A DNA stretch of 64,000 bases from Firmicutes bacterium CAG:345 (GCA_000433315.1 FR893362.1:3941-67940), one strand, 5' to 3'. Counted from the stretch's first letter, positions 19,771-41,212 are shown. A program made the numbers and translations. Notes: a model not told the origin generated them from the sequence alone.

Positions 19771-19812
19771 AAAAACTCCTTGGTTAAAAATATAACCAAG
19801 GAATTTTTTATT
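19771..19812. terminator. bidirectional rho-independent terminator
   Basis: 9-bp stem tccttggtt/aaccaagga (19777-19785 / 19794-19802), with T-runs on both flanks. It serves the plus-strand small gene and sits after the minus-strand 1022-aa ORF stop. Confidence 0.6.
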
Positions 19813-39600: not shown

Positions 39601-41212
39601 TGTTACCAGCAGACATTGAGATTTCACCGGAAACATTATTATATAAGATTGCACCTATTGCGCCATGTTCAGCCGCAATACGGGCTTTATCTTCAAATGA
39701 ATTAGTACCACGACGAACAAGAGCTATTTTTCCTTTAACATCAATAGTAGAGTAATTAATATTTAAACCAGCACCTGGAACAGTAACATATTCTATTGTT
39801 TTTGAACCAGTTTGTGGAAGATCTAACATATCTGCAAAATTATAAGCAACACCTGTAGAATTATTAGATTCAATATAATAGAAAACATAGCCTTCATCGG
39901 AAACGATATAATTGGATTTTACACCACTAATAGATGCTACAGATAAAGCACCTTCATAAGTAGATGGAGATCCAACAGTACCTGCATCAGGAGTTGTAAC
40001 TTTATTAGTATTGCCGCCTGCAGTATTAAAACCCGCTGAATAAGAGTTACTTGCAGCAACAACCAATGAAATTCCAGCTTTTTCAATAGAATCATAAACT
40101 TTATTTAAATAGTCTTCATCAGTTGGACGTGTAAAACCGCAACTAGTACCTAAAGACATATTAATAGCATCAACACCAAGCAAAACAGAATCTTCAAGTC
40201 CAGCTAAAATATCATCAGTATTAGCACCTTCTTTAAAGTCTGAGAAAACTTTCATCAAAACTAATTGCGCATTTGTTGCAACACCGGTAATAGTATCATC
40301 TTTACCAGCAATAATACCACCAACGTGGGTACCATGTTCAGAAGAAAGAGGATCGACAACAGGATCATGATCAGCATAGTCATATGCAAATGGAATTTTA
40401 CCATTAATATATACATCAGAAGCTTTTAATCCTGGAGTAAGTTGTGCAGCTACACTTTCATCAATAACTTTTTCAATATCACTTCTTTTAAATAATTGTG
40501 TATCTTCTGCAGGAATATTTTGGAAAACTGAGTGATGAGTATCAAAACCAGAGTCCAAAATAGCAACTACAGTATTAGATCCATCAAATGGAACATCAGA
40601 TGAATTGAAAATACCTGTATCATAAACATCTACAACATTTGTTGTAACATCTTGTTTATTACCGGATACTGTTTGAGGTAAAGCATAAGCTTCACTGACA
40701 GAAACATCGTAAACATTTTTAGTCTTTTCGATATTTGTTACTGTACCATAAGTAGTTTCAACACCAAAGCCATTCAATAAAGTAGTATATTGATGAGTGA
40801 CTCCTTCAATCAAATGTTGATCTTGAAGTCTTTTTATTAAAGACTTTTGTTCAGAAATTAAAGAATTAGAATATTTAATGCCCTCTTCTGAACTCGCAAA
40901 GTCTGTCAAAGAATCATATTCATCTTTTTTACTGTTTTCATAAAGATCTGACAACGATTCTTTTTCCATAGTAATAATAAGATGAACTTTATCTTCACTT
41001 TGCAAACCACTAATGGTTGAAACATAATTAGAATTAAAATACTTTTCATTCTCTGTCAAAGAAGCAATTAAATCTAATTGTTCTGCATTAAGATTTTGTT
41101 GACCATCACCAGTATCTTTATTTCCATTTGAAGAAACAATACCAGCGCAACTAGACAAAAAGCCTAATGAAACTACACCAAAAGCGGTTAACAATTGTTT
41201 AAATTTTCTCAT
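33659..41212 (-). CDS. giant surface protein (2517 aa): lipoprotein-type signal, subtilisin-like S8 serine protease with an inserted PA domain, Ig-like region, long BspA-type leucine-rich repeat array, and a C-terminal hydrophobic anchor
   Basis: Catalytic-triad motifs VVAILDSGFD (Asp), HGTHVGGIIAG (His) and GTSMASP (Ser). A PA-like insert (KGKIALVRRGTNSFEDKARIAAEHGAIGAILYNN). About 30 repeats of the ..AF..CTSL..V.. type. The C-terminal transmembrane segment VAVAVTASIVALVSAAGVALIV is followed by TKKKGGAAL. No LPXTG motif. Confidence 0.8.
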   Translation of the reverse strand: MRKFKQLLTAFGVVSLGFLSSCAGIVSSNGNKDTGDGQQNLNAEQLDLIASLTENEKYFNSNYVSTISGLQSEDKVHLIITMEKESLSDLYENSKKDEYDSLTDFASSEEGIKYSNSLISEQKSLIKRLQDQHLIEGVTHQYTTLLNGFGVETTYGTVTNIEKTKNVYDVSVSEAYALPQTVSGNKQDVTTNVVDVYDTGIFNSSDVPFDGSNTVVAILDSGFDTHHSVFQNIPAEDTQLFKRSDIEKVIDESVAAQLTPGLKASDVYINGKIPFAYDYADHDPVVDPLSSEHGTHVGGIIAGKDDTITGVATNAQLVLMKVFSDFKEGANTDDILAGLEDSVLLGVDAINMSLGTSCGFTRPTDEDYLNKVYDSIEKAGISLVVAASNSYSAGFNTAGGNTNKVTTPDAGTVGSPSTYEGALSVASISGVKSNYIVSDEGYVFYYIESNNSTGVAYNFADMLDLPQTGSKTIEYVTVPGAGLNINYSTIDVKGKIALVRRGTNSFEDKARIAAEHGAIGAILYNNVSGEISMSAGNNLAIPFCSISQDDGEVLAKKSSGSLTFSREQQAGPFMSNFSSWGPTPDLKLKPEITAHGGNILSAIPGNKYNTLSGTSMASPNMCGAIVLIRQYVKQKFPEFKPTEVNALSMQLLMSTATIALDQYGNPYSPRKQGAGLASLKEATTTQGYITVDGTDRSKLEIGDDPNETGVYKLKYNIVNMSSTDSLSYTISNETMTESVSTYDSRYVAEHANMLNPSQSVELLSDVGTLEGDVVTVPANSVVTIEQTLTLSAEEKRSIKELFPNGMYIEGFTCLKDNTEAKIDLNAPYLGFFGDWTKAPIFDKTFYEVESTAHNQAIDDEDKIKADYYATTPYGTYFSNYIIPLGSYVYDIPSGYDAIPASEEHAAISTSSTSINGITTIYAGLMRGGKEVITKITDDATGEVIYYHVNHDQIRAYNGYPSTDLLNILATEVGLKNNSTYTVSMEAKLDYGDGGVNTNLNNTFSFKFTADNEAPIIKNVKYESEYDRSLRDYRYYLTVEVYDNHYAMDIRPFILQAGSLVDLSSTPIPVYGTEKGTTSSVRFEITDYLPSLANGSGANGLALTNGIGIMVEDYAMNSNYYFVNLPGTDIDSKGSINFVNSEGLALQSISGKVGETIDLTQYINSSSENFKNLNEAEKQKYMSSLAWSSSNESVAIIKGGQVDCLSAGTSTITASFVTTDGYVARATLRLIVTRNSNKILKAATTLKDIQFTYFDTEFAFPRGGQTANIGTTGSSNYVSSYTGAISMYPGEKIYMHYEITPWNLQGYELTWSTSNPNVLSVDQDGHVVALKEGSATLTLRVSIDGVQSSILASKRIVVNSPFVVENGKLVAYKGIGDENGVVEIPERLNLTEISDYAFASYTTDMSIIVNEDDWDANKIPAGNEFITKVIIPYSVNTIGKYAFYNCSNLQEVEFKVNPNATPTSNQNITTINQYAFQKCTSLKKANIGTVSIINKAAFDGCVALEEADLSNIYALAENAFRNCTSLKTVDITTLRNAGTGAFENCTSLKSFTSGEYTKLSKNMFKGSGLEDVTIYTDRIPEGCFEDCTSLKKVTVENDLIFVGQYAFKNNTSLSSVTFKGGVEYFDNEAFADCLSLTTFTLPSSNITLEDDVFSGCTNLDKLVLASKTFIEKIGTSVVPNTVSSFEVATDNINYKTNISNNVLVSADGKTIYLVAPNSNITSFDFATEFPGLETISSGAFSAIKGLTSIDLSNVLTLKTIGNNAFEKVADLTSVKLPEGLLTIGKNAFKNTSISEIVLPTTLKEIGDNAFSGTSITDFVLPNGVKVGADVLAGTRLVSLTIGQDVTLGTDAFRNLTSLTKVSFVGSGNVVVGDNSFAGCTSLSSFNFKFLAGRVGNGAFSGDYSLTTIDLENVEEIGDNAFASISNSNMRVTLGNKLTSIGSQAFYGSRMNEITIPSNVSYVGDSAFENCARLRTVTNLSSILSSLPTSCFANCTSLTTVSLGEKVTSIGDSAFSGDSSLVTVNATNITNIGSEAFKNTTKLSSINLSKVETFGKGAFYAAKGLTSLSLSSAKTIGDFAFLAASAVKTIDMPNVNYIGKQAFSGLDITTVDIPSTISYIGETAFYNNVKLASFTNFGMITSEVNDYCLIDNGVLYVKMNNGKYALNCYPSSKTDVDFVMKDDATYIQMYAVSNVRNLTRVTLSNALVKIGIGAFSGSNNLNKVTFRSTNAPALEAMNVVDNQNELPVLSYDEQLTTTILNSSISYDTSSEIYKILTAYLNFNGDIKLGYNQFVGYVGTVSRLSVAVPSNYVASTYSSIPYIIYFDFDKVNTTEVGETLNRNSLNYIDTVNSLPENITLKDKDAILNGRTYYNALNQDLTKFGYSSADVTDLALKLEDAYNTYYDLKSEQVSKTYDYLVDDINNLGSFSISKLDEYLAILRNVNKIDQEDRQYLDTSKLDAFQAQFKAYTDALNSKIENSAAVNKIGNVAVAVTASIVALVSAAGVALIVTKKKGGAAL

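Follow-up and report, generated by a model that had tools for sequence, protein, structure and literature searches.

A probable protease-oligopeptide uptake operon in the gut bacterium Firmicutes bacterium CAG:345

We analysed a stretch of 64,000 nucleotides (nt) from Firmicutes bacterium CAG:345, a prevalent and uncultured human-gut organism represented by a metagenome-assembled genome; this whole stretch is called the window below. Its EF-Tu, EF-G, Ffh, protease, lp395 and OppA match proteins of this organism without any difference. A block of closely spaced genes (19808-41212), all on the minus strand, encodes a giant surface protease of 2517 amino acids (aa), two lipoproteins (lp225 and lp395), the oligopeptide importer OppABCDF, an 81-aa membrane protein (sm81) and a 1503-aa lipoprotein whose gene is interrupted. 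We think it likely that the block is transcribed as one unit and links the digestion of proteins outside the cell with the uptake of oligopeptides, in a gut bacterium that depends on a supply of amino acids. This reading is based mainly on the conserved association of the protease with the importer in related genomes, and on the domains recognizable in both.

Conserved linkage of the protease and the importer

To follow the locus in other genomes, an alignment of 15 OppA homologues was searched against a collection containing one genome per species. Eighty loci with 39-54% OppA identity were retrieved with 10-kb flanks, and every protein of the window was compared with them by tblastn; protease homologues were called strong at ≥40% identity over ≥700 aa of the part carrying the peptidase S8 and PA domains. 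Members of the OppA family occur in at least 562 stretches of this species-level genome set, and the genomes of the relatives are labelled as uncultured Mollicutes, Bacilli, Anaeroplasma, Acholeplasmatales and (probably mislabelled) Clostridia/Christensenella. Across the 80 loci, the core lp395-oppA-oppB-oppC-oppD-oppF-sm81 is essentially invariant.

An earlier note on this DNA, made from the sequence alone, had named gene-order conservation in advance as the test that could refute its proposal. The block proved to be syntenic: the protease is adjacent to the Opp cluster and in the same orientation in 61 of the 80 species-level genomes, or 61 of the ~65 loci that are informative. It lies 3' of sm81 in 41 loci and 5' of lp395, as in the window, in 20. 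Among the 19 loci without the protease, 14 lie on contigs that stop short on the side in question, and one (L083) retains the leucine-rich repeat (LRR) part of the protease with its N-terminus cut off, and is probably linked as well. Only four loci are genuine exceptions (L025, L049, L074 and L085), two of which carry a giant lipoprotein with Flg_new repeats beside the cluster. A reciprocal scan, in which an alignment of the S8/PA region was run against metagenome contigs, gave the same picture, with 32 of 34 informative loci encoding a protease of ≥40% identity linked to Opp in either arrangement (L100 and L126 are not).

Protease homologues at 35-39% identity are mostly not linked to Opp genes, so that the linkage is a property of one orthologous protease subfamily. 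Moreover, its survival through rearrangement, in two different gene orders, points to selection on co-expression. Such conservation is the pattern expected if protease and importer are functionally coupled. The earlier note had seen in this locus the logic of the PrtP/Opp system of lactic acid bacteria (LAB); the linkage on which that idea depends is indeed conserved, but the 'Glug' and 1022-aa proteins and lp225, which had been counted among its parts, fall outside the conserved module.

Other neighbours recur less widely. A trio consisting of a ~1060-aa Big_3 + AhpC/TSA protein, a ~260-aa membrane protein and a 4Fe-4S/thioredoxin-like protein lies downstream of sm81 in L011, L012, L014, L015 and L034, and upstream in L076. 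AhpC/TSA lipoproteins, 4Fe-4S/thioredoxin membrane proteins and VWA proteins were considered as conserved parts of the module and dismissed, each being present in a few loci only. In four loci (L122, L123, L158 and L162), an S8/LRR giant paralogue (35-39% identity) is located ~3 kb downstream of fusA-tuf, with no Opp genes. The Opp-linked protease of the window is also directly downstream of tuf, and surface-protein genes of this kind may recur at that position.

Layout of the unit and the surface protease

The features of the locus are as follows (window coordinates, strand, description).

41213..41512, minus: leader/intergenic region upstream of the protease gene (sequence read, promoter and motif scan)
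33659..41212, minus: giant surface protease, 2517 aa (Pfam, PDB sequence search)
39188..40582, minus: S8 catalytic domain of the protease, aa 211-675 (Pfam, PDB alignment)
39551-39772, minus: PA domain insert, aa 481-554, inside Peptidase_S8 and aligning with the PA insert of SpyCEP (Pfam)
34523..37045, minus: BspA-type LRR array of the protease, ~aa 1390-2230 (LRR_5, E 4e-129)
33686..33754, minus: C-terminal hydrophobic helix of the protease, aa 2487-2509, followed by a KKKGGAAL tail; membrane anchor
32985..33662, minus: lp225, 225-aa lipoprotein with a lipobox; its start overlaps the protease stop (ATGA)
31786..32973, minus: lp395, 395-aa lipoprotein, the conserved gene directly 5' of oppA
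29186..31765, minus: oppA, 859-aa family-5 substrate-binding lipoprotein (SBP_bac_5, E 7e-28; lipobox LTGC)
29155..29180, minus: GC-rich stem-loop in the oppA-oppB spacer, 11 bp, dG -18.6 kcal/mol
28136..29143, minus: oppB, permease, 335 aa (BPD_transp_1, E 1e-32)
27039..28130, minus: oppC, permease, 363 aa (OppC_N + BPD_transp_1)
25804..27030, minus: oppD, ATPase, 408 aa (ABC_tran + oligo_HPY)
24591..25814, minus: oppF, ATPase, 407 aa (ABC_tran + oligo_HPY); gene-caller start, the longest open reading frame (ORF) would begin at 25841
24335..24580, minus: sm81, small membrane protein of 81 aa; its N-terminal part is basic and hydrophilic, its C-terminal part forms one transmembrane helix
19808..24319, minus: 1503-aa lipoprotein gene, split into 465 + 1022 aa by a TAA at 22922-22924
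19777..19802, no strand assigned: bidirectional terminator hairpin, common to the unit and a convergent 63-aa ORF, marking the 3' end of the unit

All 11 minus-strand ORFs first described here exist at the coordinates given for them, and the spacing of -38 to +45 nt that had been reported is reproduced when the longest ORFs are used; with the gene-caller starts of conspecific contigs, it becomes -11 to +42 nt. The number of genes is ten rather than eleven, since the 465-aa and 1022-aa ORFs belong to a single 1503-aa gene. Of the several ATGA-type junctions that had been claimed, the protease/lp225 overlap is the only true one; an apparent GTGA overlap at oppC is an artefact, as this gene starts at ATG 28130. 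The co-directionality of the block is real but unremarkable, nearly every gene between 2598 and 48455 being on the minus strand. Since orientation alone is thus not special, the unit is defined by its tight spacing and its flanking terminators.

The unit is flanked on its 5' side by rpsL-rpsG-fusA-tuf and on its 3' side by plsX-rnc-ftsY-ylxM-ffh. Its upstream boundary is an intrinsic terminator 3' of tuf (41490-41474), included in the leader together with an AT-rich stretch, a GGAGG ribosome-binding site and a weak sigma-70-like match (41296-41268, TTTACT-17-TATACT) that is our tentative promoter. In the promoter scan, the number of matches was no better than in shuffled sequence, and it is not used as evidence. 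No CodY box (AATTTTCWGAAAATT, ≤3 mismatches) was detected in 41213-41512, and matches over the whole window were below chance; this concerns the box as given, the presence of CodY in the organism not having been tested. An Rfam scan of the window found nothing in the leader, its only match being a tRNA at 10784-10857 (plus strand). Taken together, the spacing and the boundaries suggest that the block is read as a single transcript. The ORF convergent with the unit (19567-19758, plus strand; 63 aa, Cys-containing) is the sole plus-strand gene between 14.9 and 48.5 kb. We also considered a genomic island inserted between tuf and plsX, and dropped this idea: the GC content of the locus (0.28-0.34) is no different from that of the remaining window, and in relatives the locus has other flanks, tuf and plsX not being its neighbours elsewhere.

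The first gene of the unit, recorded at NCBI as CDD22538.1 under the name 'peptidase S8 and S53', had been described as a 2517-aa S8 protease/PA/BspA-LRR protein. Pfam agrees, with Peptidase_S8 at aa 211-675, PA at 481-554, Big_2, and LRR_5 in eight stretches. From its N-terminus, the protein consists of a signal peptide with a lipobox (LSSC), a presumed propeptide, the S8 domain with its PA insert and putative domains resembling those of cell-envelope proteinases (CEPs); these are followed by Big_2, the BspA-type array of ~35 repeats, a helical tail and the C-terminal transmembrane anchor. The catalytic residues D220, H293 and S615 and the oxyanion N389 occur in subtilisin order, within the motifs AILDSG, EHGTHV, GTSMASP and AASNS, respectively. 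All four are kept in 59 of 63 family members, the remaining four being non-protease lipoproteins.

In a PDB sequence search, aa 203-877 aligned with SpyCEP (7edd, E 1.8e-75), a cell-envelope proteinase (6vjb) and C5a peptidase (3eif/1xf1), E-values for these CEP-type relatives ranging from 1.8e-75 to about 1e-60. Beyond the catalytic domain, the alignment with SpyCEP/ScpA thus runs to aa 877, while Pfam recognizes only Big_2 in aa 676-1300. By its sequence, the enzyme belongs to the CEP lineage of MEROPS family S8. The best NCBIfam match is SGO_0316_fam (NF040553), at 295 bits against a cut-off of 1400, which places it, on these scores, outside the LPXTG-anchored SGO_0316/SGO_0317 subfamily.

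The LRR array has a periodicity of 22-24 residues and contains the [IV]-G-x-x-A-F signature 28 times, with a dominant spacing of 22 residues. A segment resembling HupY/LrrG is found at aa 1893-2018. In relatives, the LRR region is 23-47% identical (tblastn; alignments not cut by the end of a locus), and it is plausible that the array binds or captures protein substrates. The C-terminus carries no LPXTG motif, and the 19 full-length homologues all end in the same way. Most homologues start with a lipoprotein signal; by analogy with other CEPs, the propeptide, and with it the lipid anchor, may be removed on maturation.

These features also allow for another role, in which the protease would be an adhesin or immune-evasion factor acting on host chemokines, complement or immunoglobulin, and Opp an ordinary transporter sharing only its regulon or its neighbourhood. 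SpyCEP and C5a peptidase are its best solved relatives, the LRR_5/BspA array and the HupY/LrrG-like region are adhesin-type modules, the accessory lipoproteins described below carry a beta-helix of the IgA1-protease type, and paralogous S8-LRR proteases occur unlinked to Opp in related bacteria. However, the Opp linkage (61/~65 and 32/34), maintained in two gene orders, is hard to explain without functional coupling, and the similarity to SpyCEP reflects a common CEP scaffold that also includes the nutritional lactocepins. We consider a role in adhesion or immune evasion to be quite improbable, and prefer the coupling of proteolysis to peptide uptake.

The importer and the accessory lipoproteins

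The identification of OppB, OppC, OppD and OppF is supported by Pfam, with BPD_transp_1 in both permeases (one of them also having OppC_N) and ABC_tran plus oligo_HPY in both ATPases. The gene set of an Opp/App-type peptide ABC importer (PepT family, TC 3.A.1.5) is thus complete. OppB is 55-78% identical in relatives. The gene for sm81 is directly 3' of oppF in most of the 80 loci (tblastn), and the protein has no Pfam or NCBIfam family.

OppA, announced as an 864-aa protein, is indeed an SBP_bac_5 lipoprotein but has 859 aa: we place its start at ATG 31765, because the alternative TTG at 31780 sits within its own AAGGAG ribosome-binding site. Homologues of the protein number over 3000; of the 120 best listed, all have lengths of 853-902 aa except for a single 532-aa entry. 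An AF2 model (pLDDT 81.6) predicts the family-5 fold with an alpha-helical insertion of ~200 aa (aa ~176-366). The best Foldseek match of this model is AppA of Bacillus subtilis (1xoc, E 3e-24, TMt 0.78), which binds a nonapeptide; OppA of Lactococcus lactis (3drf) follows with a TMt of 0.75, and AppA, OppA, DppA and NikA all reach a probability of 1.0. Since NikZ/NikA, DppA and the lactococcal OppA score close to AppA, the fold alone does not fix the ligand. The model is nevertheless consistent with OppA being a peptide-binding protein, which we think probable.

It could be argued that the importer carries products unrelated to the protease, for example muropeptides, as with MppA, or metal chelates, as with NikA, and that the linkage reflects envelope maintenance. 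Two points favour this idea: the OppA model is also structurally close to NikZ, NikA and MppA, and a requirement for scavenged muropeptides has been predicted in related orders (PMC10868615). Nevertheless, the best structural match is a nonapeptide binder, a second family-5 importer of normal size in the window could serve such ligands, and the conserved linkage to a protease fits peptides best. A non-peptide ligand therefore seems very improbable to us, and we retain oligopeptides as the likely substrate. The second importer (57635-62631, plus strand, possibly extending to 63467) has no linked protease; its genes encode, in order, an ATPase with oligo_HPY, an ATPase without it, a 535-aa SBP_bac_5 protein and two permeases, and it is a candidate transporter for dipeptides, nickel or another ligand.

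The GC-rich stem-loop after oppA may have a regulatory function. Hairpins of -15 kcal/mol or lower follow oppA in 35 of 75 related loci, compared with 3 of 70 after oppB and 3 of 69 after oppC. Those found after oppA in L007-L086 are unrelated in sequence, position and structure alone having been kept. This stem-loop is a candidate partial terminator or messenger RNA stabilizer that would set the ratio of OppA to the permeases. Over-expression of a binding protein relative to its permease is a common device.

Lipoboxes are readable in both lp225 and lp395, in line with their description as lipoproteins, and neither has a Pfam or NCBIfam family above threshold. The fold predicted for lp395 combines N-terminal InlB-type B-repeat (beta-grasp) domains with a C-terminal right-handed beta-helix, which would be of the type found at the N-terminus of M26 IgA1 proteases. 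The Flg_new repeats attributed to this protein thus remain below threshold in Pfam sequence searches but are clear at the level of structure; for Glug (PF07581) there is no Pfam match in lp395, despite a clear likeness of fold to the IgA1-protease beta-helix. lp395 is non-catalytic. Neither HEXXH nor HXXEH motifs are present in lp395, lp225 or the 465-aa and 1022-aa products, and Pfam and NCBIfam reveal no rotamase, PrsA or peptidase family in the accessory proteins that could represent a second peptidase or a PrtM-like maturase.

In the tblastn comparison of the 80 loci, lp225 is restricted to the closest relatives, which argues against its being a component of the system, as had been supposed. 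In CAG:345, lp225 and lp395 are two separate lipoprotein genes with 11 nt between them. The lp395-family ORF is 561-588 aa long in the closest relatives L011, L012, L014, L015, L018 and L034 (e.g. L014:8249-9970), and a sequence resembling lp225 is in frame with this long ORF in L014, L015 and L034 (tblastn). Such fusion or fission hints that both act together.

In the last gene of the unit, one TAA codon, resulting from a C-to-T change (CAA to TAA), is all that divides the 465-aa ORF from the 1022-aa ORF, both being in the same frame. Conspecific contigs, retrieved by an exact-match look-up of lp395 and 99.8% identical over 21 kb, have CAA in all four cases in which the site was read, and a 1503-aa gene call in six of six. 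The 1503-aa form occurs in most of the members read of a 791-sequence cluster; the split form, seen on 6-8 contigs, is that of the NCBI record for CAG:345 (CDD22528/CDD22529). The TAA may represent the allele of a minority strain, or else an error in the consensus sequence.

The N-terminal part of the 1503-aa protein contains a lipobox, a Ser-rich linker, Flg_new repeats and a GLUG-like beta-helix, and its first 465 aa are a weak paralogue of lp395. Glug had been proposed for this part; the Pfam match is sub-threshold (E 0.033, 15 bits against 20.5), but the predicted fold of the paralogue lp395 supports the assignment. The 1022-aa part has no Pfam or NCBIfam match and no internal repeats by self-BLAST, and a search of 5.8 billion proteins yielded homologues within the species only. 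Apart from one weak match, the 1503-aa gene is not beside the locus in any of the 80 relatives (tblastn). The 'Glug lipoprotein' and '1022-aa protein' once listed as components are therefore one species-specific gene, truncated here, and we rejected the 1022-aa part as a core component, regarding it as orphan, species-specific and accessory.

Giant non-catalytic lipoproteins resembling this species-specific gene flank the Opp cluster elsewhere (L025:17099-21565, L074:879-7292, L041:17489-22483, L060 and L077). Those that were scanned (L025 and L074) contain multiple Flg_new repeats. The giant lipoprotein occupies the place of the protease in L025, and forms a second flank on the other side in L041, L060 and L077.

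The gene content of the locus also bears on a possible role in signalling. In Bacillus, extracellular subtilisin-type proteases mature Phr peptides, which Opp then imports. An S8 protease and an Opp importer, both encoded at this locus, are the two extracellular steps of such a circuit, and the system might similarly mature and re-import signalling peptides. Nevertheless, the locus and its conserved neighbours showed neither a small secreted pro-peptide gene nor an RNPP-type receptor or regulator, a tethered enzyme of 2517 aa with ~35 LRRs is far larger than needed, and the conserved partners are surface lipoproteins. We give very little credit to a signalling circuit as compared with peptide nutrition.

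Two other genes of the window may be mentioned. A second EF-G-like gene (54489-56552, plus strand; 687 aa) has all five EF-G domains, with weaker scores than fusA (42762-44834), and may encode an EF-G paralogue or a ribosomal-protection-type protein. A 948-aa pullulanase-like protein (7764-10610, minus strand) contains PUD, CBM_48 and alpha-amylase domains.

Proposed function and comparison with known systems

According to the model that we favour, the giant CEP-type subtilase would be exported and tethered to the membrane at both ends, through a lipid at its N-terminus and a transmembrane helix at its C-terminus. Its BspA-type LRR array probably binds protein substrates or surfaces, and the enzyme would cut external proteins of dietary, host or microbial origin into oligopeptides. 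These would be captured by the lipoprotein OppA, probably made in excess over the permease owing to the stem-loop after its gene, and imported by OppBCDF, with lp395 and sm81 as putative conserved accessory parts of the transporter side. A nutritional role for the locus would agree with what has been described for RF39, which is without several amino-acid pathways (PMC6784871), and with a metabolic model of RF39/RFN20 that invokes oligopeptide uptake followed by PepF (PMC7301438).

Several points weigh against this model. The nearest solved relatives of the protease, SpyCEP and C5a peptidase, are immune-evasion enzymes and not nutritional ones. Pfam finds no intracellular peptidase or PrtM-like maturase in the locus, and the leader contains no CodY box. 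For OppA, the Foldseek E-value of NikZ (2e-23) is close to that of AppA, as is that of NikA, and nickel, opines and muropeptides are further ligands known for family-5 binding proteins. The case for auxotrophy is carried over from related lineages to CAG:345, for which the NCBI taxonomy and a literature search gave no order-level placement. Finally, internal promoters are possible, the single transcript being deduced from sequence, with a promoter scan that does no better than shuffled DNA.

It is tempting to go one step further and to imagine that the protease, lp395 and the enlarged OppA dock as a physical surface complex, a 'proteolysome', in which peptides would pass directly from protease to transporter; OppA may dock through its clade-specific helical insertion of ~200 aa. 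We regard this extension as doubtful. If true, it would be a Firmicute/Mollicute-like counterpart of the Sus utilisome of Bacteroidetes, and the chief source of amino acids for a gut lineage that is highly prevalent and still uncultured.

Human and animal guts commonly harbour CAG:345 and its relatives, which are still uncultured; for lp395 alone, the contig collection has 857 indexed blocks. The operon offers a concrete and testable route of amino-acid supply for these bacteria, and suggests the use of intact proteins or long peptides in isolation media. Its protease marks a likely abundant surface antigen or adhesin. More generally, the locus would be a natural case of selection keeping a CEP and Opp in one transcription unit, with a sortase-independent way of anchoring the CEP, an unusually large OppA family with an uncharacterized insertion, and, in lp395 and sm81, two conserved partners yet to be studied.

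We found no paper describing the protease or the operon, including those on RF39/RFN20 (PMC6784871; PMC7301438). The statement that this architecture is not a described system holds in this sense, but what we see is a variant of a known scheme and not a new kind of machine.

Streptococcal CEPs (SpyCEP/ScpC, ScpA and SGO_0316/0317) provide the nearest solved structures and share with the CAG:345 protease the S8 domain and the PA insert, in an alignment (aa 203-877) that continues past the catalytic domain. In contrast to them, this protease has no LPXTG, its C-terminal two thirds (LRR, helical tail and transmembrane helix) are unrelated, and its genomic partner is an Opp operon instead of virulence genes. 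The long LRR_5 array and the HupY/LrrG-like segment are shared with BspA-like proteins (BspA of Tannerella, HupY/LrrG of group B Streptococcus), but here the array would be the stalk or binding module of a protease with intact catalytic residues and not a stand-alone adhesin. M26 IgA1 metalloproteases have only their N-terminal beta-helix/GLUG region in common with lp395 and the 465-aa part of the 1503-aa protein; the accessory proteins of CAG:345 are small lipoproteins with InlB B-repeats, without catalytic domain or HEXXH.

In concept only, the locus recalls the Sus-like loci of Bacteroidetes, which bring together genes for a degradative enzyme at the surface, for accessory surface lipoproteins with a binding role and for an importer dedicated to the products. 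The substrate here would be protein and not glycan, the importer is of the ABC type and not SusC/D, and a physical complex is hypothetical.

The closest parallel in logic is the PrtP/Opp system of LAB, made up of the cell-envelope proteinase PrtP, its maturase PrtM, the Opp importer and intracellular peptidases. It relies on the same two steps in an amino-acid-auxotrophic Firmicute: an S8 proteinase that is bound to the surface and has a PA insert, and then oligopeptide import by OppABCDF (PMC2827410; PMC7783315). The CAG:345 locus differs by having no PrtM/PrsA-like gene and no CodY box found in its leader, and for anchoring, the protease has a lipobox together with a transmembrane helix at its C-terminus, in place of LPXTG and sortase. 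It adds ~35 BspA-type LRRs, lp395 and the 81-aa protein, and its OppA is ~260 aa longer, with a helical insertion. In the lactococcal model, L. lactis SK11, prtP/prtM and oppABCDF2 are located on different plasmids (PMC2827410), whereas here protease and Opp are united in one putative operon, a linkage kept in ~60 species.

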